Shown piece after piece: positions 6,209-63,988 of a DNA stretch of 64,000 nt. Made by a program: the position numbers and the translations under genes. Location of the stretch: contig OX597814.1 in assembly GCA_951406725.2 (NCBI GenBank), positions 52,824,001-52,888,000 on the forward strand, written 5' to 3'. The notes beneath the pieces were generated by a model that was not told where the DNA came from, did not search any database, and saw only the letters and a list, made by a program, of their open reading frames with translations. This DNA is from Octopus vulgaris (taxonomy: Eukaryota). Numbering within the stretch: position 1 is the stretch's first letter; the number at the start of each line of letters is the position of its first letter.

Positions 6209-9197
6209 TCATCATCATCATCGTTTAACGTCCGTTTTCCGCGCTAGCATGGGTTGGACGGTTCAACCGGGATCTGGGAAGCCAGAGCTGCACCAGGCTC
6301 CAGTCTGATCTGGCAGTGTTTCTACAGCTGAATGCCTTTCCTAACGCCAACCACTCCGCGAGTGTAGTGGGTGCTTTTTATGTGCCACCGGCACAGGTGC
6401 CAGGGGAGTCTGGCATCGGCCACGATTGGTTGGTGCTTTTAACGTTCCACCGGCACGGAAGCCAGTCAAGGCGGCGCTGGCATCAGCCATGTTCGGATGG
6501 CGCTTTTTATGTGTCACCGGCACAGAAGCCAGTCGAGGCGGCGCTGGCATCGGCCATGTTCGGATGGTGCTTTTTTATGTGCCACCGGCACAGAAGCCAG
6601 TCAAGGTGGCACTGGCATCGGCCACGTTCGGATGGTGCTTTTTATGTGCCACCAGCACAGGTATCACAACTACTATTTCCATTGATATTTATTTCGATGT
6701 TCATGTACTTGACTCAATAGGTCTCCTCAAGCACAACGGGATGTTCTGGAATCCAAGGTACTTTGAATGGGCAGAGGATATGCGGGACTGGTGCAGGAAG
6801 CAGCCCGGGTCTTTGCAGTCACAGCATGTCTCCAGAGATCTCGGTCCTTCGTCATTGCCTCTGTGAGGTCCAACACTCTGAGGTCATGCTTGACTACCTC
6901 ATCCCATGTCTTCCTGGGTCTACCTCTCCCCCTGATACCTTCAACTGTTTGGGAGCAGCACTTCTTCACACATCTCTCCTCATCCATCCGCAGTACATGA
7001 CCATACCATCACAAGCGTCGCTCTTGCACACCACATCTGATGCTTCTTATGTCCAGCATTTCTTTCAGGGTGCTTACCCTCTGTCGTGCGCGCACACTGA
7101 CATTACACATCCAGCAGATCATGCTAGCTTCATTTCTTTCAAGTTTATGCATGTCCTCTGCAGTCACAGCCCATGTTTCACTACCGTGAAGCATGGCAAT
7201 TCGCACACATGCATCATACAATCTACCTTTCACTCTGAGCGAGAGACCCTTTGTCGCCAATAGGGGTAGGAGCTTTTTAACTTTGCCCAGGCTATTCGTA
7301 TTCTAGTAGTGATACTCTCTGAGCATCCACCTCCACTACTAACTTGGCCACCCAGGTAGCGGAAACTATCAACTACTTCTAGTTTGTCCCCCTGGAGTGT
7401 GATGGAATCTGTTTTCTGAGTATCTGTGGTGTCCATTGTCCCTGTGAATCTGCCACACTTGAAAGCTATCTTATCAGTTAATTTCCCTTTGATGTTGCTG
7501 CACCTCTTATGTGTCCATAGCTTACACTGGGTACATCTTATGAAGTTTCTACCTACGCCTTTTCTACAGATCGAGTGTGTGCTGAGTTCGCCTTTTTGTT
7601 TACTATAACTTTGGTCTTTGCTACATTTACTCTAAGGCCCTTTGATTCTAACCCTTGCTTCCACACCCGAAATTTCTTTTCTAGTTCCAGTAGTGATTCT
7701 GCTATGAGAGCCAGGTCATCAGCATAGAGGAGCTCCCAGAGGCAACCTGTTTTGAATTCCTCTATTATTGCCTGGAGGACTATGTTGAATAAAAGGGCAC
7801 TGAGGGCTGAGCCTTGGTGTACACCTACTTCTACCCGGAATTCTTCACTATATTCATTGCCAATCCTAACCTTGCTGATAGCCTCTCTGTACAGGGCCTG
7901 TACAGCCCTTATTAGCCATTCATCAATCACCAGTTTCCGCATCGACCACCAGATAAGGGATCGGGGGACCCTGTCAAAGGCTTTCTCCAAGTCCACAAAA
8001 GCTATGTAGAGGGGTTTATCTTTAGCTAGGTACTTCTGCAGTTGTCGGACCAGGAATATAGCATCAGTGGTGCTTCTACCCGGCACAAAACCGAACTGCA
8101 TCTCATCTAAGCAAGTTCTCTCCCTAATGAGATGGGTTATGACCCTCTCTGAGACCTTTATCACCTGATCCAACAGTTTAATACCCCTGTAGTTATTTCT
8201 ATCTAGAGCATCACCCTTACCCTTGTAGCAGTTGACTATGGTGCTGCTACGCCAGTCATTGGGTATGACTCCATTATGAACTACCTGGTTTACAATGCGG
8301 GTGACTAGGCCATAGCCCACATAACCAGCTGTTTTAAGCATCTCAGCAGGGATTCCTGATGAGCCGGGGGCTTTACCTGGTTTCATACCCTTAATTGCCT
8401 TAACTACAAGGAAGCTGTTTATTCGGATAGCTGGTCCCTCTACTGGGTCAACATTTGGCAGGCTCTCCTCCTCCCATTCATTCTCCACATTCAGCAGTCT
8501 TTCATAATGGCTTCTCTAAGCCTCTTTCTTTTCACCATCATTAGAAGCAAGTGCCCCATCATCCATGTGGACACATTTCTCTCCTGTAACATCACTATTT
8601 TCTCTCACACACTGTCTAGCAATCCGAAATACCTCAGTTCTTTGGTCCTCACGTCGCTGGACATTGGCAAACTTCTTCTTTTCTGCTACATCTTTGGCTA
8701 TGTATACCTGCCGCCCAGCCTCCCTTTTGGCTACCTGGTACAGTTCCCTGCTACCCCCATCCCTCCAGGCTTTCCAGGCCTGTTTCTTTGCACTAATGGC
8801 TTTGTCTACTTTGTCCACCACCACGTAACTCAGCAAGCTGTCCCGTAGGAATTTCCAGCTACCTTCTATGTCCGACGTCTGGAGCTCCTCCTCCCTCTCA
8901 TCAAATTTCTTGATGAGGATGTCTCTGAATCTCTGACCATGTGAAGGGTTCTTTAGCTTCCAAATGCTTCTTTTCTGGATTGGTCTGTTTCTTGGAATCC
9001 TTCTGGCCTCAAGCCTAAAGTCACTAATGATTAGCCTATGCTGAGGGGTACATTCTTCACCCGGGAGGGTCTTTGTATTTAAGAGCAACCCTGCATCCCG
9101 CTGTCTGGTGAGGATGAAGTCTATTTGGCTAGCGGAGTCTCCTGACTGATAGGTTATAAGGTGGCAGTCAGGTTTCCTGAAGTTAGTGTTGCAGATT
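6207..9197 (-). mobile_element. RTE-clade LINE, 5'-truncated and frameshifted (APE C-terminus, RT, 3'UTR, (GAT)n tail)
   Basis: ORFs 8516-9274, 7553-8488, 7230-7436, 7009-7260 and 6727-6987 carry SQIDFIL, GKAPG, NYRGIKLL, QFGFVPGRSTTDAIF, FVDLEKAFDRV, GVHQGS, LLYADD, FRYLG, LHGSETW and RGRGRPRKTW. Confidence 0.96.
6370..6660. repeat. ~59-bp minisatellite (about 5 units) in the RTE 3'UTR
   Basis: Unit GGTGCTTTTTATGTGCCACCGGCACAGAAGCCAGTCAAGGCGGCGCTGGCATCGGCCATGTTCGGAT is repeated. Confidence 0.9.
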
Positions 9198-9344
9198 AAA
9201 AGGTTACATGCATCACCGCAAAATGTGGGAGTAGTTAGGAATCTAAATCGTAGGAGACAGACACACAACTTCACTTTTATATATAAAGATATATATATAT
9301 ATTATATATATATATATATATATGAATGTGTGTGCATATGTTTG

Positions 9345-9989: not shown

Positions 9990-10101
9990 GGTTCGAAATT
10001 TCCCCAAAACACCTGATGAAGGCTGGAGGGTATATCAGCCAAAACACTGTCTTAACAACAAACAAGATGAGGACAAATATTCGTCAAATGTAAATAATGT
10101 A
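9990..10101 (+). mobile_element. PLE terminal fragment with decayed hammerhead
   Basis: AACAC-CTGATGA-A-GGCTG...CAGCC-AAAAC (GAAA replaced by AAAA)-ACTGTCTT at 10008-10053. Confidence 0.55.
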
Positions 10102-10930: not shown

Positions 10931-11350
10931 ATATAAATACATAGATATAAAAAAAGTTGCATATTTATTTTCTATTTTTATTGATATAACCTGATGCTTA
11001 AATTTTCCCTGGAAGCATTTTCCAGCTAAATCTTAACAATAAGAATTTCACTTTGGAAGACACTGTTATAAACTAGGACGTATATCTAAAAGCAATTAAT
11101 TTCTCAACTGAGATGAGAAAACTGCACCAGGTTGTAATTCAGATCACAAGACTTAATCATGTATTTCTCATTCCTCAGGCGCTTCTTTCAGCAGCAATCT
11201 GACATCTTAAATCACTTGGTCATTGCAATTTCCACACATGCATTTTTACTCTAGTTATTTTTTCCCTTATACAACGGGAATGTGAATCCTGTAAAAGCTC
11301 TCTGCTTAATGAAAGAAGATTGCTGTTTGACATCCATGATTCCATGTTAA

Positions 11351-17129: not shown

Positions 17130-19000
17130 TCATTAAGAAAAGTGTCATCCTGATGCACTGGTGGGAACATTTTAGTGACATACTAAACTGATCTTCAACA
17201 ATTTCTAGTGAGGTTCTTGAATGTATTGAACAATTTTCAGAAGATACCAATTTAAATCTGCTGCTGAATATGGAGGAGCTGGTAACTACCATCAGCAAGG
17301 CAAAATGCAGGAAACCTCTTGTGTTGACAACATCCCAAGAGAAGTCTATAAGTATGGTGAGAAGGAATTGTGTAATAGACCTCCCCAATTTTTCAGAGAA
17401 TGTTGGTAATGTGGTAACCTACACCAGTAACTCAAGGATTCTCAAACATTTACAAATGAGATGGAGACTGACAGAACTTGAAATTACCAAAGAATTCCCT
17501 TTCTTTTAATTGCATGGAATATTTATGCACAAATTTTGCTCAAGCAGTTGCCAAAATATCCAAATAAATTCTTCCTAAAAGTCAAGATAGAGTTCATGTG
17601 TCTTGAAGCACCAATAATAATGATTTCCATCTTGTAACAAATTCACTTTATACCATGTTCATTGACTTAGTGAAAGCTTTTAACAGAATGTGAAGAAAAG
17701 GTACAGGCATAGCTGTGTGGTAAGAATCTTGCTTCCCGAGCACATGATTCCAGGTTCAGTTCCACTGCGGGGTACCTTGGGCAAATGTCTTCTACTATAG
17801 CCTTGGGCTGACCAAAGCCTTGTGAATGAATTTGGTTGATAGAAACTGAAAGAAGCCCATTGTACATGTATGTATATATATATACATACATACATACATA
17901 CATACATGTATATATATAATATATAAATATATATCTGTGTGTGTGTGTGTGTGTGTTTATGTCTGTGTTTGTTCTCCCATCACCACTTGATAATTGGTGT
18001 TGGTGTGTTTATGTTCCCATAACTTAGCAGTTCAGCAAAAGAGACTGATAGAATAAGTACTAGGCTTAAAAATAAAAGTAAGTCCAGGGGTTGACTTGTT
18101 TGACCAAAACCCTTTAAAGTAGTGCTCCAGCATGGCTGCAGTCAAATGACTGAAACAAGTAAAAGAATAAAAGAATAAAAAAAAGCTCAAAAGATATGGT
18201 TTTCTGGACAAATTTGTGGAAATAGTCAAGCAGTTTTCCATGATGGTATGTCTGCTACAATCTTTTTTAAGAGTGACAACTCAGCTTCCTTTGAGCAAAG
18301 CAGGCTATATACACCTGTATTTGCATTTTCCTGGATGCTGTGCTTGAAAGGATAGCAAGTGAGCTCACAGGTAGTGTGAATATCTACTCAAGAATGGCTG
18401 TGAAGTTGTTGAACCCCTCTTGGATAAGACCTGCTAGGAAGTGCTGTGAGATGTGTATTCATAAATTTCTCTTTACTGAAGATTCAACACCAGCGAGCCA
18501 TATTTTGGAAGATATATACAGAAAATTACACATGAATTTGAATGTACATTGTTAGCTTTTGACCTCTCAATAAATGTAAAAATTACTGTTACTGAAACAA
18601 GAGTGCTGGAGCATAAAATTGTGAATTATCATCAAGACTGAATTATCCTCTGTAAGTGTGATGAAAAGGATCATATATTTGGGCTGTACAATTTTTTTTG
18701 TCTGATGTCAACAGCTTGAATGTAAAGGTGGCTCACCATACATAGTCAGCAGCAGTCATCTTTTGGAAGATCAATGATCAAATGTGGAAGCAACAAAGCA
18801 TAAAACTAAAAAAAATATTGAGTGTACTGAGTTCTAATATTACCTTTTTTGCTGTAATCTACTAAGACCTACACATTGTGTTGTCAACATCAAAAATCTG
18901 ATGAGCTGCCTGTTATGTGAGCTTTGATCTATAATGAACATTTCCTGACAAGACTACATCTCCAACCAGTAAGCCCTGCAGTATGCAAGTATCTTTATCT
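17130..19000 (+). mobile_element. Old BovB-like RTE LINE remnant interrupted by a SINE
   Basis: Broken frames WWEHFSDILN...EELVTTISKAK, KFVEIVKQF-HDGM and FLFTED (decayed FADD). Confidence 0.7.
17704..18190 (+). mobile_element. SINE family A, full structure (head, microsatellite, tail)
   Basis: A/B boxes, internal (TA)/(TG)n and AAAAGAAT tail repeats. Confidence 0.9.
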
Positions 19001-27695: not shown

Positions 27696-27939
27696 TATAT
27701 ATTAAGAACAATCTTACTGCCTTGACCTTCGAAACGTGGAGTAGATGAAACAAAGGCCACTGAAGAAGGGGAATTTTCCTTGTTTTGTATGTCCTGTACT
27801 CTATTTTTTCGTTGTTTAAGAAAAATGTCCATCTCCTTGGTTTTGTGTTTATGTTTTCGTTTCTCATTGTGTTCGACGTTTTTTTGGTGTACATATATGT
27901 ATGTATATATGCATATGTTTTATTTATTTATTAATTTAT

Positions 27940-28140: not shown

Positions 28141-29556
28141 CGATGTTTTGAGTTTGGTGACTCTTGTCGATCAGATGTACCTGAGAGGGGCAACCCTGAA
28201 TGAACTGACAAAGCAAATAGCTTTATATATAATCCAGCCAACACATTGACTGATTTGCACTAGTAGATCGCCTGATCAAAAAAAATATCGGAGTAAATGC
28301 GCAAGCCCATTTTACTTCTGGGATCAAAATGGAAACTACATAGGGAATGAAGCAAACTCTTAATCACACTATTGTACCTGCACCCATGCTTTCTCTGAAA
28401 TTTTGGACAGCAGCCAAACTATTTAACCACCAATATATCATTTTGATTTATCTTTTCACTCATAGAGGGTCTATCAGTATGCCAGTCAGATCCAAGAAGA
28501 AATTTCCTGTTCTAATTATTGATTTTATAACTTCTAGCCTCAGATTTTATTACAAGCCTGCAGAAATCAAAAATTAATAAAGTTATTTTTACCTAAATCA
28601 AAAGTTACTTATTTTAGACCATTAAGTAAAACCATTTCATATCCTGTTTAAATGATCTCTCATGCAGTTGAGAGTCTCATGTTTGATCTAAATAATTGAG
28701 TATGCTATATGGAACTAGGTAAAAGTCAAACCTGGCAGATCAAATGCATTGAGTATGTAGATTGCTTCCAAACATTTGTCTGAATGTGACTCTCTGTGAT
28801 GATGGGTTTGCTTAAAAAAAAAACAATGACCATAACAATCACAATAATATGAACACGTACAGTAACAACAATCATTCTAGCAATGATAATCCTTTCTACT
28901 ATAGACACAAAGCCTGAAATTTTAGATGAGAGGACTAGATGATTACATTGGCTTCAGTATTTGACTGATACTTATTTTATTGACCCTGAAAGGATGAAAG
29001 CAAAGTCAACCTTGGTGGAGTTTGAACTCTGTCCAACATGCTAACGATTCTGATAACTTTAGCAATAATAATGCTTTCAAATTTTGACACAAGGCCAGCA
29101 AGTTTGGGGGTGGGTAAATCAATAACATCGACCCCAGTGCTAAGCTGGTACTTATTTTATCAACCCTGAAAGGACAAAAGGCAAAGTTGATCTCAGTAAT
29201 ATTTGAACTGAGAACATAAAGATGGGCTAAATGCTGCTAAGCACTTTGTCCGGCAAGCTAATGATTCTGCCAGCTCACCACCTTTAACAATAGTAATAGC
29301 AACAACAATAGTAATAATGATAAATAACAACAATGGTTATATCACAAATAATAAATAGAACCAGTCCTCTACATAGTTGCTTAACTTTCTAGAAATAGTA
29401 ACTAAATCTCTCTCAAATTACAGTAATATGGAGTTGATTAGGTCTGTAAATCCAACTGAGGAAAGCAAGGATATGAGACCTCCTCAACAAAGCGTTTTCA
29501 GCTCTATTGACTGCACTAATAGTGATCCATCCATCCATATATACATAAATACATAG

Positions 29557-39815: not shown

Positions 39816-42712
39816 CATCATCATCATCGTCGTCGTCGTTGTTTAACGTCTGTTTTCTGTGCTGGCATGGGTTGGACGGTTTGACTGAGAGCTGGCAAGC
39901 CAGAAGGCTGCACCAGGCTCCAATCTGATCTGGCAAAGTTTCTACAGCTGAATGTCCTTCCTAATGCCAACCACTCCGAGAGTGTAGTGGGTGCTTTTTA
40001 TGTATCACAGGCACAGGAGCCAGTCAGGTGGCATTGGCATTGACCACACTCGAATAGTGTTTTTTACCTGCCCCTGTAATGGGTGCCAATCAGGAGGTAC
40101 TGGCATTGGCCATGACAATGAGTTCACTTGACTCAACAGGTCTTCACAAGCACAGTTTATTGCCCAACAATTGAAGGGTACTCTTAAATGGGCTAGTTAT
40201 GCTGCACTGGCATAGGCCAGAGCTACGGTCTCACTTGGCTTGCCGGGTCTTCTCAAGCACAGCATATCTCCAAAGGTCTCAGTCACTTGTCATTGCCTCC
40301 GTGAGGCCCAACGTTCAAAGGTTGACTACACCACCTCATCCCAGGTCTTCCTGGGTCTACCTCTTCCATAGATTCCCTCTACGTCTAGGGTGTGAAAATT
40401 TCACACAACTGTCCTCATCCATATGCAACACATGACCATACCAGCACAGTCGTCTCCCTTGCACACCACATCTGATGCTTCTTATGTCCAACTTTTCTCT
40501 GTTGTGTATGCACACTGACATTACACATCCAGAAGAGCATACTAGCTTCCTTTCTTGCAAGCTTATGCATGTCCTCAGTAGTCACGGCCTATGTCTCACT
40601 GACATGTAGCATGGCTGTTCACACACTTGCGTCATACATTCTACCTTTTACTCAGAGTGAGAGGCTCTTTGTCACCAGCAGAGGTAGGAGCTTTCTGAAC
40701 TTTGCCCAGGCTATTCTTATTCTAGCAGCTACACTCTCAGAGCATCCACCCCTACTGCTGACTTGGTCACCAAAGTAACAGAAGCTATCAACTAGTTCTA
40801 GATTTTCCCCCTGGCATGTAATGGAAGCTGTTTTCTGCACATTTTCAGTGTTTATTGCTCCTGAGCATTTGCCACACACACAAAACTATCTTCCCAGTTA
40901 GCCTTCCTTTGATATTGCTACATTTCTTATGTGTCCATAGCTTACACCGGATACATCTTATGGCGTTCCTACCTACACCTTTTCTACAGATTGAGCAGGG
41001 CTATCTACCTGAAGGGATTTGTGATTTGTCTGCTTTCCTACTTATTAAGACTTTGGTTTTTGCTGGATTGACTCTAAGGCCTTTTGATTCTAGACCTTGC
41101 TTCCACACCTGAAACTTTTCTAGTTCTGATAGTGACCTAGCTATTAGAGCAAAGTCATCAGCATAGAGGAGCTCCCAGGGGCATCCTATCTTGAATTCCT
41201 CTGTTATAGCCTGGAGGACTATGATGAATAAGATGGGCTGAAGACTGATCCTTGGTGGGCCCCTACCCCTACCTGGAATTCTTCACTATAATTGTTGCCA
41301 ACCCTCACCTTACTGGTAGCATCCCTGTACATGGCTTGTACAGCTCTCACTAACAACTCATCTATCCCTAGTTTCCGCATTCACCACCAGATAAGTGATT
41401 GGGTGACTCTATCAAAGGCTTTCTCCATATCAACGGAAGCCAGGTACAGAGGTTTATCTTTGGTTAGGTATTTCTCCTGTAGCTGTCTCACCAGAAATAC
41501 AGCATCAGTGGTGCTTTTCCCTCGCACAAACCCAAACTGCATCTTTTCTAAACTAACTCTCTCCCTAATTAGTTGGGCTATGACCCTCTTCTTGACTTTC
41601 ATTACCTGATCCAACTACTTGATACCTGTGTAATTATTCATATCTAATGCATCACCTTCACCTTTGTAGCAGTTGACTATGATGCTGTTTCACCAGTGAT
41701 TGGGTATGACTCCTTCATGTATCACCTGATTGACTATATGGGTGACAAGACTATAGCCGACACCGCCCGATATCTTAAGCATCTCTGTGGTGATTTCTGA
41801 TGGGCCAGAGGTTTTTCCCTGTCTTCATACCCTTAATTGCTTTATCTACCAAGGTACTGTCAATTCGGATAGCTGGTCACTCAGTTGGGTCAATGTTCAG
41901 TAGACTCTCTTTCTCCCATTCATTCTCTTCATTTAGCAATCTTTCATATCAGCATCTCCAAGTATCTTTCTTTGCAGCCTCATTAGTTGCAAGTGAGCCG
42001 TCATTCATGCAGACACATTTCTTTCCTATGACATCATGATTCTCTCTCACACACTGTCTTGCAATACAAAACACTTCAAGTCTTTGGTCCTCACGATGCA
42101 GAACATTGGCAAATTTTTTCTTGTCTGCTTCCCTCTGACTAAGTAAACCTGTCTCCTAGCTTCCCATCTGGCAATCTGATACAATTACCTGCTACCACTG
42201 TTCTTCCAGTCCTTCCATGCCTGTTTCTTTTCCCTAATGGCCCTGTCTGTTCCACCACCATGTTACCTTGGGTTGAGAGGGGCCTTTGCACCATCCACAG
42301 ATCTGGTCAGTAGCCCTCAACAGTTGTCTTCCACATCATGTGATGCTATATCCTCCTCTATTTCATCAAAAGCTTCAAGTAATACGTCTCTAAATCTCTG
42401 TCTATTCACAGGATCCTTAAGCTTTCAGACCCTTCTTCTCCATGCTGGTCATCTTCTGGGCATCCATTTAGCCCTGAACCTGAAGTCACTAACTACTAAT
42501 CTATTTTGTGCGGCGCATTCTTCATCTGGGAAGATTTTGGCCTTTATAAGTAGCTATCTTTCCCATTTCCTGGTGAGGATATAGTCAAATTGACTAGTGT
42601 GTCCATCAAACTGGTAGGTGAATAGGTGACTGGCTGGTTTCCTGAAGTTAGTATTACAAACCATAAGATCATTTGCCTCACAGAACTCCAGTAGCCTGAT
42701 TCCCTCCTCATT
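39816..42712 (-). mobile_element. RTE-clade LINE, 5'-truncated and degenerate (same family as 6207)
   Basis: NEEGIRLLEFCEAND (APE), MQFGFVRGKSTTDAVF, DMEKAFDRV, YADD at ~41155-41166, ARIRIAWAKF; same (GAT)n 3' tail. Confidence 0.95.
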
Positions 42713-50912: not shown

Positions 50913-51482
50913 ATTCCCAACTCAACTTACTTTCTTCTTCAATTTCAACTCCCGATCGATGCCCGCAGCAAGTTCTTAAAAATTTATCTTACTATTTTAT
51001 TCGTTGTTACTACGTTTATTCATACATTGTTACGAAAATTTAACCTTTTAGGCTACTTTCAAGCCTTCGCCATAACTTGATTTATCTTTCCTATCTCTCT
51101 CTCTCTACAAAATTTAACCTTAGGCTACCTCACTTCCCATCTTTCCGCCATTGGCGGTCTTTTTCTTTTTCCCCCTCTTCTTCTTCTTATGCTAAAACTT
51201 GAAAATCGCCATTACCATTACGATTCTGCAATTTAAATTCCCAACTCAACTTACTTTCTTCTTCAATTTCAACTCCCGATCGATGCCCGCAGCAAGTTCT
51301 TAAAAATTTATCTTACTATTTTATTCGTTGTTACTACGTTTATTCATACATTGTTACGAAAATTTAACCTTTTAGGCTACTTTCAAGCCTTCGCCATAAC
51401 TTGATTTATCTTTCCTATCTCTCTCTCTCTACAAAATTTAACCTTAGGCTACCTCACTTCCCATCTTTCCGCCATTGGCGGT
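50913..51482. repeat. Near-identical ~245-bp direct repeat (50913-51158, 51237-51482)
   Basis: ATTCCCAACTCAACTTAC...TTCCGCCATTGGCGGT occurs twice, separated by a ~78-bp spacer. Confidence 0.95.
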
Positions 51483-52487: not shown

Positions 52488-52608
52488 ACCCGCCTTCATT
52501 ATTTTATAACTTTCACATTACCATTTTGCTGATTCAGCCATTGATTCATATGGTAAATACTTATGTACTGATAGTTGGGATTTAACCACACTATCCAGCG
52601 ATAGAGTA

Positions 52609-52660
52609 GTCATTACTGATGAGCTTTTGATTCAAAGTGAAACTAAACTAGTATGATGAT
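52609..52660 (+). ncRNA. Type I hammerhead ribozyme, canonical core
   Basis: GTCATTA-CTGATGA-GCTTT(TGATTC)AAAGT-GAAA-CTA(AAC)TAG-TA-TGATGAT. Stems I, II and III all pair; GUA triplet; predicted cut after 52653. Confidence 0.85.
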
Positions 52661-53250: not shown

Positions 53251-54269
53251 GAATATATATATATAGTAGATGAAACGGTGCATCGTCTAAGAAATTACAG
53301 GGTAAATGTTTTTTAATTTTCTCCTGGTTTACGGAATTGACGTTATTTTGCGGTTAAAGCTTTTTGGCTGTTATTTCTAGTGGGTGAATGGCCTATTATG
53401 GCCGTTCCTTGATTGTGATGTTGAACTTAAAATGGTTTATGACTATTTAATTTTTTCCCACTAGGCCGCTGGTGGCAAAAGAATTCTACAAAATTTTTTT
53501 TGCCACCCTATATTGATTAAATATATATATATATATATAAGAAAAAAAGTTTGAAAATGCAATTTAAACGATGTTTATTTACTTAACCGGTTTCACTCTT
53601 TGGTAAAAGATTGTCAAAAGTAACATTAAAAGTATCATTGAATAATATGGGTTCAAAAAAGTTTTTTTACATAATTGTCACATTGGATATTATGCATTCA
53701 AAAAAGTTTTTTACATAATTGTCACATTGGATATTATGAATTCAAAAATGTTTTTTTATACAAAATTGTCACATTACATGTATAAATATAGTGTTTGGTA
53801 ACAGAGAAGTTCAATAGTGTGATGAGAATATTTGGAAAAATTGGTAGAAAAGGATAAAACAAATATATTATTGGAAATTTGGTTGCGTTAATTATTGGTT
53901 GTCGCAAATTGTCACATTACATGTATATATATACAGTCTTTGGTATATATATACAATCTTTTGACAGCAAAAATTAAAATGGATTTTTTATACATCTCAG
54001 AATATTTTAAGTTGAAGGCGAGAATATGTTGTTACTGACCTGTTTGTTTTGGCAGAAAGGTTGAATTGAGAGAAAAAAGGTTGTACCCAGTGTGGTGTAT
54101 ACTTCCCCTTCAAGCATCAATGGTTTTGGGGTTATCAGGAGGTTAGTATGCCTGCTGGTCAAGCAGCGTCTGTTTGTCACACACATATATACACACACAC
54201 ACAAGGAATGCAGAAGCTTACACTATTATATTATTATATACAACACTATTATATACAACATTATATACA

Positions 54270-54826
54270 CTATTATATACAACAACATTCCACAACTAAA
54301 TCAAGACCCACGCCTGAAAAAAATACTGGCAGCTCATAAAATAATAAAAAGTAAGAGACAACCTAAATCCCTAAAAAACCTCCTCACCAACGCAAAATTA
54401 CACAACACAAACCCACCGCCCACCATCAAAAAATGTGGTCGCCCCAACTGCAAGACCTGCATCCACCTCATTGAGGGATCGTCGTACAAGTTCCACTCGG
54501 GACACACATTCATCATAAAAAATAATTTCACGTGCGCATCAAAAAATTTACTTTACGTCATAAGGTGTGAAGGATGCCACGAAGACTACATAGGGCAAAC
54601 GAGCCTTACCCTCAGAGAAAGAATGACAGTTCACCGACAACTGAGGGACCCCTCCACAAGACAGATACCACTAAGTGGACACTTAGACCTTTGTGCACAC
54701 AATAAGTCCCCCAAATTCTTAGTCTTCCCACTATACCAATGCTCGGACAACACCACAGACCAAACACGAATAAATAAGGAAAGTAATCTTATTCAAAAAT
54801 ACAGACCACAACTAAACATACTCTAA
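54270..54826 (+). pseudogene. PLE linker zinc finger plus GIY-YIG endonuclease (RT missing)
   Basis: KRQPKSLKNLL...KCGRPNCKTCIH...FTCASKNLLYVIRCEGCHEDYIGQTSLTLRERMTVH...LSGH...RINKESNLIQKYRPQLN*. Confidence 0.9.
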
Positions 54827-54929
54827 CATACCCCCTGGAAACACATCCAGAGCAAGCACACAGGGACACGCGCACACTCACAGCATATCGTGCGGGCGGG
54901 CACATGCACGCATAGGACACACTAGCGGG

Positions 54930-55147
54930 CATTGACCGCACACATACGTGGCATACACACGCATGCATTATATATATGTAGGTTATGTACGTGTGTGAGT
55001 GTTGTGTGTGTGTGTGCACGTTGTGTGTGTGTGCGCGTGTGTATATGTGTGTGTGTGCACTGTGTGCGTGTGTGTGTATGTGTGTGTGTGTGCGCGCGTT
55101 GTGTGTGTGTGTGTGTGCACGTGTGTATATATGTGTGTGTGTGTGTG

Positions 55148-55188
<41 letters not shown>

Positions 55189-55224
55189 CATTGTATACGT
55201 GTGTATGTATTTACATGTGTATTT

Positions 55225-55263
<39 letters not shown>

Positions 55264-55464
55264 AGTGTTGTGTGTGCATATGCATGGTATGTATGTATAT
55301 GTGAGTACATTGTTTGTGTGTGTGTGCGGTATGTAGAGATATATTTGAGTGTGTACGCTATAGGTTTGTAATTTGTGTGTGTGGGTGTGTGTGTGAATTT
55401 TTTATATATATATGTGTGTGTATGTGTGTGAAAAAATATATGTATGTGCATGTATGTATGTATG

Positions 55465-55521
<57 letters not shown>

Positions 55522-56296
55522 GTGTATGTATATGTGTGTGTGTGTATATTTATTTGCATGTTTATGCGTGTATAAACATGTGCATTATTTGCATGCGCAT
55601 TGTGTATATGTATATTGTATGTATGTGTATTGTATATGTATGTGTACAATTAAGTGTATATATGTGTGTGTATGTGTGCATTGTATATATGTATATTGTA
55701 GGTGTGCCATATGTGCATGAATACATGTATATACATTGCGTGTATATATATGTATGCATTGTGTATGTATGTTATGTGTGTGTGTTTATATATATTATAT
55801 GTATGCGTACGTGTATGTGTATGCATTGTATGTATGTATATTGTGTGTATATGTGGTATATCTATGTATGTGTATGTAAACACTATTTATATGTATACAT
55901 GTATATATGTATATGCATTGTCTATATATATATATATATTATATGTATGTATTGCGTACGTATATTGCATGCATATATTGTGTATGTGTATTATATACAT
56001 GCTGTATTTGTATATTGTATGTGTATATATATGCTAGGTGTATTTGTGTGATATTTATATTATGTATGGATATGTGCGTGTGTTGTGTGTGTGTGTGTGT
56101 GTGTTGTGTGTGTATGTGTGTTATATATATGTGTGTATATTATATATAAATACATGTTATATTTGTGTGTTGTGTGTATATATTATATATGTGGGTGCGT
56201 TGTGTGTGTGTGTGTGTGTGTTCTGTGTGTGTGTGTGTGTGTGTTGTGTGTATGTGGTGTGTGTTTGTATACTATGTGTGTGTGTGTGTGTGTTGT

Positions 56297-56330
<34 letters not shown>
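54930..56330. repeat. 1.4-kb degenerate (TG/TA)n tract inside the PLE 3' region
   Basis: Directly visible. Confidence 0.95.
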
Positions 56331-56333
<3 letters not shown>

Positions 56334-57011
56334 GTGTGACAAACAGACGCTGCTTGACCAGCAGGCATACTAACCTCCTGATAACCCCAAAACCATTGAT
56401 GCTTGAAGGGGAAGTATACACCACACTGGGTACAACCTTTTTTCTCTCAATTCAACCTTTCTGCTAAAACAAACAGGTCAGTAACAACATATTCTCTGCT
56501 TCAACTTAAAATATTCTGAGATGTATAAAAATTCCATTTTAATTTTTGCTGTCAAAAGATTGTATATATATACCAAAGACTGTATATATATACATGTAAT
56601 GTGACAATTTGCGACAACCAATAATTAACACAACCAAATTTCCAATAATATATTTGTTTTATCCTTTTCTGCCAATTTTTCCAAATATTCTCATCACACT
56701 ATTGAACTTCTCTGTTACCAAACACTATATTTATACATGTAATGTGACAATTTTGTATAAAAAAACATTTTTGAATTCATAATATCCAATGTGACAATTA
56801 TGTAAAAAACTTTTTTGAATGCATAATATTCAATGTGACAATTATGTAAAAAACTTTTTTGAACCCATATTATTCAATGATACTTTTAATGTTACTTTTG
56901 ACAATCTTTTACCAAAGAGTGAAACCGGTTAAGTAAATAAACATCGTTTAAATTGCATTTTCAAACCTTTTTTCTTATATAATCCCACTCGTGCGATACC
57001 CCACAACTCAA

Positions 57012-62123: not shown

Positions 62124-62174
<51 letters not shown>

Positions 62175-62240
62175 GTATATGTATATATATATCTGTATAC
62201 ACACACACATACGTATATACATATATACATATATATATAC

Positions 62241-62280
<40 letters not shown>

Positions 62281-62311
62281 ATATATATATATATACAGAT
62301 ATACATATATT

Positions 62312-62745
62312 TATATATAATATGTGTATAATTTAGAGAAAAACCTCTATTAAACAATTCAATAATGAAAGATGCTATTCACAATTTATAGAAAACATAT
62401 ACTATAAAAACCTTATTCTAAAAATCAATGAAGTACAAAAACAATAAATAGTAAACAGTAGTAAAAAGACTAAGTGCATTTCATGGCTATATTTTCAAAT
62501 AGATAATAATAATAAAATCAATTCAATACGCCATATTTTCATGTGATATATTTCTTATAAACGCTAAGTTCTATGTATTAAGTTTAAATTCTTAGTTAAT
62601 AGAAATCCTTTGATAAGATAAATTATGTTTTTATTTTAAGAAATATTGTTAAATGTTTTTCAATTATTTATAGTTAATACATGTATTTTCTATATTTATT
62701 TGATAATTAATGTAAGTTAAGATATGTACATTTATTCTATTATTA

Positions 62746-62781
<36 letters not shown>

Positions 62782-63070
62782 CATTATTATTTTAGACCTG
62801 ATGAGTGACTATATTTTTAAACAGAATTAATTTTAGATCGATTTAATTTTAAATCGAATTGATTTTACTATTATCAATTTGAAAATATAGCCATGAAATG
62901 CGCGTAGTCTTTTTACTACTATTTACTAGTTATTGTTTTTGTACTTCATTGATTTTTAGAATAAGGTTTTTATAGTATATGTTTTCTATATGGTGTGAAT
63001 GACATCTTTCATTATTGAATTGTTTAATAGAGGTTCTTCTTCAAATTATATACATATGTTATATATATAT
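62312..63070 (+). mobile_element. Non-coding PLE end with ~215-bp inverted repeat
   Basis: Arms 62312-62525 and 62856-63070 are reverse complements; hammerhead overlaps the right arm; (TA)n flanks. Confidence 0.8.
62794..62910 (+). ncRNA. Type I hammerhead ribozyme with long branched stem II
   Basis: AGAC-CTGATGA-GTGACTATATTTT...AAAATATAGCCAT-GAAA-TGCGCG-TA-GTCT; predicted cut after 62906. Confidence 0.8.
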
Positions 63071-63720
63071 TTTTAATAATATATTATCATTATTAATATA
63101 AGGAAATCAATATCGAATTTTTCACAAAGATATACCCATATGAAAGACTTTATGTATTAAAAATATAGATAAATATTAAAAATATAAATATGATGTCTAA
63201 AATAAATTTGAAAGTTTAAAAGTTTTGAATTAAGTTTTTAAGCATCTTACGATCGTTTCACAAAAGGGTTGTCCCTATAATGAAGTTCTATATTGATAAG
63301 CACTTATAGACAACCCTTCTGCTCTTCAGAGATATAAAATATGAATATTGTATAATGTATCGAATGATATTTAAAAAAAAGATTTGAATTAAAATTGTAA
63401 AATGGTGTTTGCAGAAAGATGTTTGTAAAATAGTGTTTGTTTGAAATATAAAATAAAAAGTAAAAATTACAACTTTTGATGAGAGTCTTTAAATCCATAT
63501 ATATTTCCTTGGTTATTCTACTGCAATAATCCATAATATTCATACTCAAAATCTGTCATATTATCTTGCATTCCAGTATAGTTCATGTAGTTAGTTTAGA
63601 TATTTATTTATATACATTTTTAATACATAAAGTCTTTCATATGGGTATATCTTTGTGAAAAATTCGATATTGATTTCCTTATATTAATAATAATAATATA
63701 TTATTAAAAAATATATGTAT
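63063..63720 (-). mobile_element. Second PLE end with ~115-bp inverted repeat
   Basis: Arms 63063-63180 and 63602-63720 are reverse complements; internal hammerhead on the minus strand. Confidence 0.8.
63244..63333 (-). ncRNA. Type I hammerhead ribozyme, canonical core
   Basis: Minus strand ATCT-CTGAAGA-GCAGAAGGGTTGTC...GACAACCCTTTTGT-GAAA-CGATCG-TA-AGAT; 14-bp stem II, palindromic stem III, GUA triplet. Confidence 0.88.
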
Positions 63721-63915
63721 ATATCGCTCATATTAGATATATAAATACTTTAATAGTATTTATATTATTTTATACAATGGAGTACTTAAAATAAATTCAG
63801 TATATAATATTCTTATTGAATATATTTACCTAATTATTTATGTACATATGTTATATATTGTGAAATTTGATTTAAAATTGCTAAATTGAATTATTAGTTT
63901 TGGAATTATATTCCC

Positions 63916-63988
<73 letters not shown>

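Follow-up and report, generated by a model that had tools for sequence, protein, structure and literature searches.

Two motifs with the core of a hammerhead ribozyme lie on opposite strands of a single octopus locus, each of them within a long foldback. What produced this arrangement, and do the two ribozyme-like sequences work together, separately or not at all? The locus belongs to a 64,000-nucleotide stretch of Octopus vulgaris DNA (the window; coordinates below are positions within it), and the genome searched was the 2.8-Gb assembly of 227 contigs. A preliminary description had seen two unrelated elements that were arranged tail to tail and met at a shared (TA)n. The analysis points instead, with high probability, to one 5'-truncated Hydra-type Penelope-like retroelement (PLE) nested in the 3' end of another, the two carrying pseudo-LTR type I hammerheads that have a long stem II and would likely cut only as dimers, in tandem RNA from an intact element. 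As a locus, it is ordinary retroelement debris. Its wider significance is modest and is carried by a genome-wide population of long-stem hammerheads and by an asymmetry of foldback tails, not by the pairing of the two hammerheads.

Anatomy of the locus

Element 1 spans 62312-63918, and element 2 (63070-63839) lies inside its 3' end. On the left, element 1 adjoins a (TA)n-rich microsatellite at 62128-62311, its left insertion target (Tandem Repeats Finder array 62128-62323). The first part of element 1, at 62312-62527 on the minus strand, is an inverted and 5'-truncated arm with the short (untailed) end, and contains the 3' half of the hammerhead in antisense. The sense body follows on the plus strand at 62528-63066. 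It corresponds to the 3' untranslated part, or pseudo-LTR, of a Hydra-type PLE and begins about 370 bp past the stop codon of the parent ORF. The inverted repeat of element 1 (62302-62512/62865-63075) is 91% identical, and a gapped alignment of its arms (62307-62527/62853-63070) agrees at 199 of 221 positions. Element 2 comes from a second Hydra-type family. Its sense body, a 5'-truncated pseudo-LTR region, occupies 63070-63604 on the minus strand, with the short end at 63070. The inverted arm of element 2 extends over 63605-63839 on the plus strand, where 63605-63710 pairs with 63070-63175 (97% identity) and is followed by a family tail of about 115 nt. The long inverted repeats described earlier are thus present in both elements, and so is the reported lack of a clear ORF, as tblastn found no ORF remnant within the window elements.

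The right boundary had been drawn at 63720 and has to be moved. Element 2 runs to 63839, which is the point where its other copies meet (TA)n. It is followed by the right copy of a target-site duplication (63840-63858, plus strand), by a displaced tail of element 1 (63859-63918, plus strand) and by the right flank of element 1, which a repeat scan identified as (ATT)n and then (TA)n (63919-63978). The left copy of the duplication, made by element 2, lies at 63048-63066 on the plus strand and matches the right copy at 18 of 19 positions. The duplication measures 19 bp, or 21 bp if two shared Ts are counted. Both repeats contain a private G, and among 33 element 1 ends only the window's own has this G. 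The displaced segment is known as a tail from the way it follows the element 1 end elsewhere: it stands directly after the end (gap 0-2) in 12 of 29 other copies, the remaining 17 being broken or stopping at the short end, and many copies run past the point matching 63066 into the conserved tail.

Since the tail of element 1 lies beyond element 2 and the duplication bears the private G, element 2 is placed as an insertion into element 1 at its TA-rich short end. Identity is also higher between the two arms of element 2 (97%) than between those of element 1 (about 90%), which gives the same order. On sequence grounds, these comparisons show that element 1 came first and element 2 later, with a 19-bp duplication, and the two are nested rather than tail-to-tail neighbours. 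In this course of events, element 1 inserted into (TA)n, and element 2 later entered the short TA-rich stretch between the short end and the tail of element 1, duplicating 19 bp. A target-site duplication of element 1 itself is not discernible in the microsatellite. A first look at the genome gave 2106 candidates for element 1 and 879 for element 2; these are not copy numbers, and 40 were scored per element.

Parent elements and clade

Both families can be followed upstream into coding sequence. The element 1 family is contiguous with decayed RT and GIY-YIG frames in loci L061-L065, and an upstream walk from element 2 leads to a near-full-length, decayed and partially tandem locus (L135), in which the order is N-terminus, RT, endonuclease and then hammerhead. 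The single ORF with RT plus GIY-YIG endonuclease at the C-terminus, a feature of EN+ PLEs, is found as decayed frames in both parents, and intact ORFs of 821-828 aa are found in relatives that are 77-80% identical to the RT of element 1. The RT motifs MG-x-DS and YRDD and the C-terminal GIY-YIG lie upstream in both families. Among seven relatives with long ORFs (L138-L144), one has a hammerhead within 1.3 kb downstream.

The Hydra clade is defined in PMC8557442 by RWK, DKT, a CxCx5C linker, the absence of CCHH, C-terminal CxxC and CxH, insertion at (TA)n and a canonical hammerhead. In the octopus parents, the CxCx5C linker and the C-terminal CxxC and CxH, which surround the conserved E and N, are present and CCHH is absent. 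RWK is found in the parent of element 2, and KWK and DKT in close relatives of element 1; DKT was not seen in the parent of element 2, which is frameshifted. Insertion at (TA)n and the canonical hammerhead core are found for both elements. The Neptune clade was the first guess for the parents and was dropped on the Hydra definition (PMC8557442); its traits, a CX2-5CxxC linker and CCHH, are absent from both parents. More general PLE traits are also seen, namely pseudo-LTRs, 5' truncation, partial tandems, an inverted truncated copy and an optional tail, and the variable-length target-site duplication is represented by the 19 bp at element 2. The earlier attribution of the hammerheads to PLE pseudo-LTRs tied to (TA)n is in agreement with parents, flanks and cores alike.

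The assignment of elements 1 and 2 to the Hydra type is part of the explanation that is considered highly probable as a whole; named Hydra proteins were compared with the parents by eye. A Pfam search with ten parent or related protein pieces matched no RT family and gave one sub-threshold match to GIY-YIG, which counts against the assignment and leaves motifs and unnamed homologues as its basis. Among the homologues of a related ORF, a single one has a name, a protein of Octopus bimaculoides (66% across 30% of the query). The RT pieces of the two parents are 43% identical to each other, and the pseudo-LTR DNA of the two elements shares only AT-repeat matches. The word "unrelated" is therefore apt at the DNA level and wrong at the protein level: since both parents encode an RT and a GIY-YIG with Hydra-clade motifs, elements 1 and 2 are relatives.

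Hammerhead motifs in the window

Hammerhead 1 (62794-62910, plus strand) has a stem I of 4 bp, its core at 62798, a stem II region of 90 nt (62805-62894), GAAA at 62895 and a predicted cut at 62906/62907. Its loop III is TGCGCG, versus CGCGCG in the family. Hammerhead 2 (63243-63334, minus strand) has a stem I of 5 bp, its core at 63329, a stem II region of 63 nt (63322-63260), the loop III CGATCG and a predicted cut at 63248/63247. Both have the CUGANGA, GAAA and NUH core with three helices, of which helix I is open, and in the monomer the helix III of each is only 2 bp long and is capped by a palindromic loop. Two canonical type I cores on opposite strands, as first reported, are thus present. 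A scan of the window with a descriptor (CUGANGA, a stem II no longer than 160 nt, GAAA, a loop, UH and a stem I of at least 4) found three sites, at 52609-52660, 62794-62910 (plus) and 63334-63243 (minus). The preliminary description had named motif density in shuffled sequence as a check, and 60 block shuffles gave a mean of 0.017 sites and a maximum of 1. Two looser scans returned the same three sites, with shuffle means of 0.2 and 0.53 (30 shuffles). The folding z-score is -2.1 for hammerhead 1, with 5 of 200 shuffles as good, and -3.2 for hammerhead 2, with 0 of 200. Rfam at E values up to 5 matched neither of the two motifs; elsewhere in the window, it gave a weak type III match at 52604-52648 and miRNA matches that were rejected as microsatellite artefacts. 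A candidate hammerhead at 28796 was rejected as a chance match (shuffle mean 0.65).

Several features bear on whether these motifs can cut. Hammerhead 1 has two C-to-T changes where most family copies hold C. In a plus-strand transcript that includes the left arm, the pair probability of its stem II is 0.0, versus 0.5-0.97 without the arm. By prediction, this arm takes the 3' half of hammerhead 1 into a duplex, and hammerhead 1 would be sequestered by its own foldback. Hammerhead 2 retains its stem II inside its foldback (pair probability 0.88-1.0). In neither motif does ViennaRNA give stem I a pair probability above 0.05, which counts against an active-ribozyme reading; for the 8-nt helix III, the self-duplex has a predicted energy of about -10 kcal/mol. 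Hammerheads 1 and 2 cannot complement each other, since they lie on opposite strands and have unlike loops III. Judged by these folding models, both ribozymes of the locus are probably inert relics. When four contig sets were compared with the locus, all matches were multi-copy and neither a locus-specific joint nor RNA ends appeared, a result that weighs neither way. Of the earlier statement that a transcript from either strand would meet a ribozyme and hairpins, the presence of a core on each strand stands, and a working ribozyme is doubtful in view of the predicted sequestration and the two decay changes of hammerhead 1, the 2-bp helix III of both monomers and the unlike loops III.

Long-stem hammerheads across the genome

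Patterns that consist of the core and a C-R-N-N-Y-G loop were counted genome-wide, with both foldback arms included and decayed copies like hammerhead 1 missed. The exact pattern with a stem II region of 47-77 nt occurs at 17,618 places (13 for the reversed-pattern control), and that with 78-108 nt at 2,559 places (control 21). A slightly looser pattern with a stem II region of 10-40 nt occurs at 11,075 places (control 267). With comparable exact patterns, there are thus more motifs of the long form (about 20,000) than of the short one (about 11,000). The large ribozyme-retroelement population, unmatched by Rfam at these sites, that had been proposed from the window is borne out by these long-stem motifs.

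The first 30 matches per pattern, at the start of C1, were sampled, giving 90 loci of which three fall in two bins. The 90 motifs form 35 sequence clusters, and for this reason the rows are not independent. Of the 90 loops III, 66 read as perfect palindromes, versus 1 in 8 expected, and each of the eight allowed palindromes occurs. A palindromic loop III is a mark of dimeric cleavage. The fold covers at least 80% of the stem II region in 30/33 long and 29/30 very long cases. A stem I of at least 3 bp is present in 27/30 short, 28/33 long and 14/30 very long cases, with 3, 8 and 11, respectively, in shifted controls. An inverted copy lies within 1.5 kb upstream of 32 of the 90 motifs. A Hydra-type frame lies within this distance of only one of them, which leaves most long-stem families without an assigned parent so far.

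Among the relatives of element 1, stem II measures 17, 19, 38-39, 55-80 or 89-99 nt, and each subfamily carries a palindrome and a paired stem I of its own (unrooted tree, for the most part unresolved). Four different yet paired stems I are kept by these related subfamilies. The check for family covariation that had been proposed gave a weak result. In 15 rows of the element 1 group, 93% of cells are paired, and in five pairs both sides have changed (9 of 500 shuffles); the covariation score was reached in 20 of 500 shuffles. Both signals are weak and come mostly from one divergent row. At the level of sequence, paired stems I together with palindromic loops III argue for selection on the ribozyme.

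In four of eight longer stretches, a family with an 85-nt stem II flanks Hydra-type ORFs. Its pseudo-LTRs are 99.3-99.7% identical in three stretches, and the family is considered very young because of this identity. The copies seen (L345, L346, L349 and L352; G000:C1:64855000-64863499 and others) form a 5.6-kb pLTR-ORF-pLTR unit with the loop CAGCTG and a weak stem I, and the ORF is split between frames.

Formation of the foldbacks

Copies of both families show variable 5' truncation and copy-specific inversions. Among 24 assessable foldbacks, 23 have one tailed and one short arm (p 1.5e-6 against 0.5). This number includes the window's two (21/22 without them), and the loci were picked by score, not at random. 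The odd one out, L242, has two short arms, and two tails are found in none. The element 1 foldbacks L125, L157, L167 and L174 (3'-broken arm) and L173 (pieces 1.3 kb apart) were left out, and the element 2 loci L210, L214, L215 and L218, which have a shared junction and near-identical flanks, were merged. Element 2 copies at L045, L047-L051, L053 and L058 lie within a segmental duplication near several contig ends. At L001, L022, L157, L174 and L237, a small and biased sample, the break in the inverted element 1 arm falls +51 to +69 from the core, close to the apex of stem II.

In published PLEs, the tail is often at one end only and an inverted truncated copy is seen (PMC8557442). According to the Poseidon work in PMC11167929, two RT start sites bound the stretch that forms the tail, cutting and extension of both target strands occur in vitro, and insertion in this system did not need hammerhead cleavage. 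From the one-tail-one-short pattern, the published one-ended tails, the two RT start sites and the extension of both strands in vitro, we infer by analogy that the two strands use different start sites for priming. The endonuclease would nick both target strands, and the nicked 3' ends would prime reverse transcription in opposite directions, with a different internal start site used at each end. The two truncated cDNAs would then join head to head to give the foldback. Each foldback is most likely a one-off insertion product of this kind and not a member of a mobile foldback family.

A mobile family of the latter sort would be a non-autonomous, MITE-like one, with each element moving as a unit with its inverted ends. 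Long and well-matched terminal inverted repeats, the lack of an ORF, hundreds of related copies and a junction common to four element 2 loci are features it would have. However, 93-99% of the flank (1.5 kb) is likewise common to the loci with this junction, so they are segmental duplicates, and the element 1 junction is spanned by no other of 40 scored candidates, the one-piece match being at the window itself. Terminal foldbacks were flagged in 16/77 element 1 clusters and 16/61 element 2 clusters, with breakpoints scattered over hundreds of bases. Fixed terminal inverted repeats common to dispersed copies, as in MITEs and foldback DNA transposons, were not found, and longer copies continue into RT and endonuclease frames. 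The MITE-like reading is largely refuted and very improbable. Another route to a foldback, which we consider unlikely, would have a single cDNA snap back or switch templates at the stem II hairpin. Several arm breaks of element 1 do lie near the stem II apex (+51, +55, about +58, +60 and +69 from the core), but this sample was drawn with queries that start near +55, and the arm breaks of element 2, from +88 to +344, are not within its stem II. In addition, the end of the second arm would be identical or shorter after snap-back copying, whereas the tail sits on the short or on the long arm, varying by foldback.

The hammerheads themselves have also been considered in two other ways. With an intact-looking core on each strand, convergent and 330 bp apart, the pair resembles a co-opted bidirectional cassette for cutting or terminating the transcripts of either strand. 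Nesting, however, explains this geometry, hammerhead 1 is decayed and predicted to be sequestered, the loops III differ and no second such pair is found among element 1 and element 2 candidate loci, which leaves the cassette extremely improbable. A long stem II could also have inactivated the ribozyme, leaving a non-cutting motif that is a protein-binding or replication signal or a drifting AT-rich expansion. The weak stem I in the longest class and the labile length of stem II, 17-99 nt within one related group, are in line with this, as are the dispensability of cleavage in vitro and the lack of RNA ends at the cut site reported in PMC11167929. Yet at least 35 clusters with different palindromes retain the core, the cleavage triplet and the palindromic loop III, as does the very young family with its 85-nt stem II and nearly identical pseudo-LTRs. 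An inactivated ribozyme is for these reasons held to be unlikely. The preferred reading remains one of nested, one-off Hydra-type insertions. A more far-reaching version is tentative and falls short of probable: octopus Hydra-type elements may have evolved a distinct, active long-stem-II subclass of hammerhead, with about 20,000 copies in dozens of families that standard models do not see, which cuts as a dimer through a palindrome particular to the family, and their foldbacks may record an obligatory two-ended insertion that uses a different RT start site for each strand.

Relation to known systems

The Hydra clade of C-terminal EN+ PLEs, as described in PMC8557442, resembles the octopus elements in its ORF with RT and C-terminal GIY-YIG, its CxCx5C, CxxC and CxH motifs without CCHH, its insertion at (TA)n and its type I hammerhead close to the 3' end. 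The same paper (PMC8557442) describes Hydra-1_Obim of Octopus bimaculoides as well as Penelope-13_HM, which is listed with one hammerhead per strand and with an inverted copy truncated at the 5' end. The locus architecture, that is inverted ends, tails, (TA)n targets and opposite-strand hammerheads, is already in print. The differences lie in dimensions and numbers. Stem II of the Hydra elements in PMC8557442 has 3-7 bp and loops of 3-10 nt (up to about 25 nt), versus 63 and 90 nt here, and their tails have 30-40 nt, versus about 68 and 115 nt here. Few Hydra families are given outside cnidarians in that paper, whereas a single endonuclease query gave 15,313 first-look candidates genome-wide in the octopus. 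The spacers searched by Craig et al. were of 7-17 and 35-50 nt (PMC8557442).

Metazoan PLE hammerheads of the minimal and dimeric types, as presented in PMC4209133, share with the octopus motifs a helix I of 4-5 bp, a palindromic helix or loop III and many families per genome. They also occur mostly as single truncated copies and in opposite-strand pairs 100-700 bp apart. Those with a 2-bp helix III and a palindromic loop are poor monomers and work as dimers (PMC4209133). Their enlarged helix II has 7-8 bp, in contrast to the irregular hairpin of 45-108 nt found here. Poseidon PAc of Anolis (PMC11167929) is similar in its two internal RT start sites, AT-rich targets and pseudo-LTR hammerhead; it belongs to another clade, and the link from two-strand priming to genomic foldbacks is made in the present analysis.

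Non-LTR retrozymes (PMC7229834; bioRxiv 10.64898/2026.07.22.740005) also contain type I hammerheads in repeats without ORFs and are proposed derivatives of PLEs. Retrozymes are tandem ORF-less monomers, whereas the window elements are single truncated copies from ORF-bearing families and so do not qualify as retrozymes. Retrozyme-like tandem arrays were seen elsewhere in the genome, at L347 (G000:C1:10835500-10839999) and L348 (G000:C1:13782500-13785999). The arrays have four units of 594 bp and three of 535 bp, 98-99.6% alike, with a long-stem hammerhead per unit.

Two results look new, the long-stem-II population and the one-tail-one-short asymmetry of the foldbacks. A 2017 paper is said to deal with dimeric variants of PLE hammerheads. 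Counts in other genomes include 126,247 hammerheads in the axolotl (PMC7229834) and 235 Rfam hammerheads in the giant squid (PMC6962438). The main text of a 2026 octopus repeat annotation (PMC13282606) makes no mention of hammerheads, ribozymes or Hydra. In the literature searched, we found no hammerhead census of octopus or cephalopods and no PLE hammerheads with a long stem II; subscription papers, Repbase and Dfam entries and supplements could bear on this novelty. Censuses with short stem II limits or based on Rfam would miss most such motifs in this genome, because long forms outnumber short ones. Furthermore, the subfamilies with a stem II of 17-99 nt and the eight loop III palindromes make a natural series for testing the role of the PLE hammerhead. 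The one-tail-one-short rule gives genomic support for two-strand priming behind the inverted ends of PLEs, and the young families make this rule testable.

Other repeats in the window

The remaining hammerhead-like sites concern the earlier estimate of about six families in 64 kb, which stands in part. Three intact cores are present. The third, at 52609-52660, is a type I hammerhead with a short stem II and a 9-nt loop III, and its family is an older repeat with 403 first-look candidates and about 80% identity. The fourth is a degenerate copy of another short-stem hammerhead family at 10013 (10000-10100). A fifth is a variant with a U3/A8 core, a type reported in PMC4209133. It occurs at 56898 (plus) and 53617 (minus), once in each of two 670-bp inverted repeats (98.7%) that surround the 3' end of a Neptune-type PLE at 53534-56981. 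The open frame of this PLE (54101-54823) has a CxxxxCxxC linker and two cysteines before YIG. The sixth, in a repeat at 27760 (27725-27860), is ambiguous; its core is preceded by GAAAC, and it is possibly a permuted form. The window also contains two related 2.7-kb repeats at 6566-9216 and 39990-42681 (73% identity) and an exact direct duplication of 246 bp at 50913-51482.
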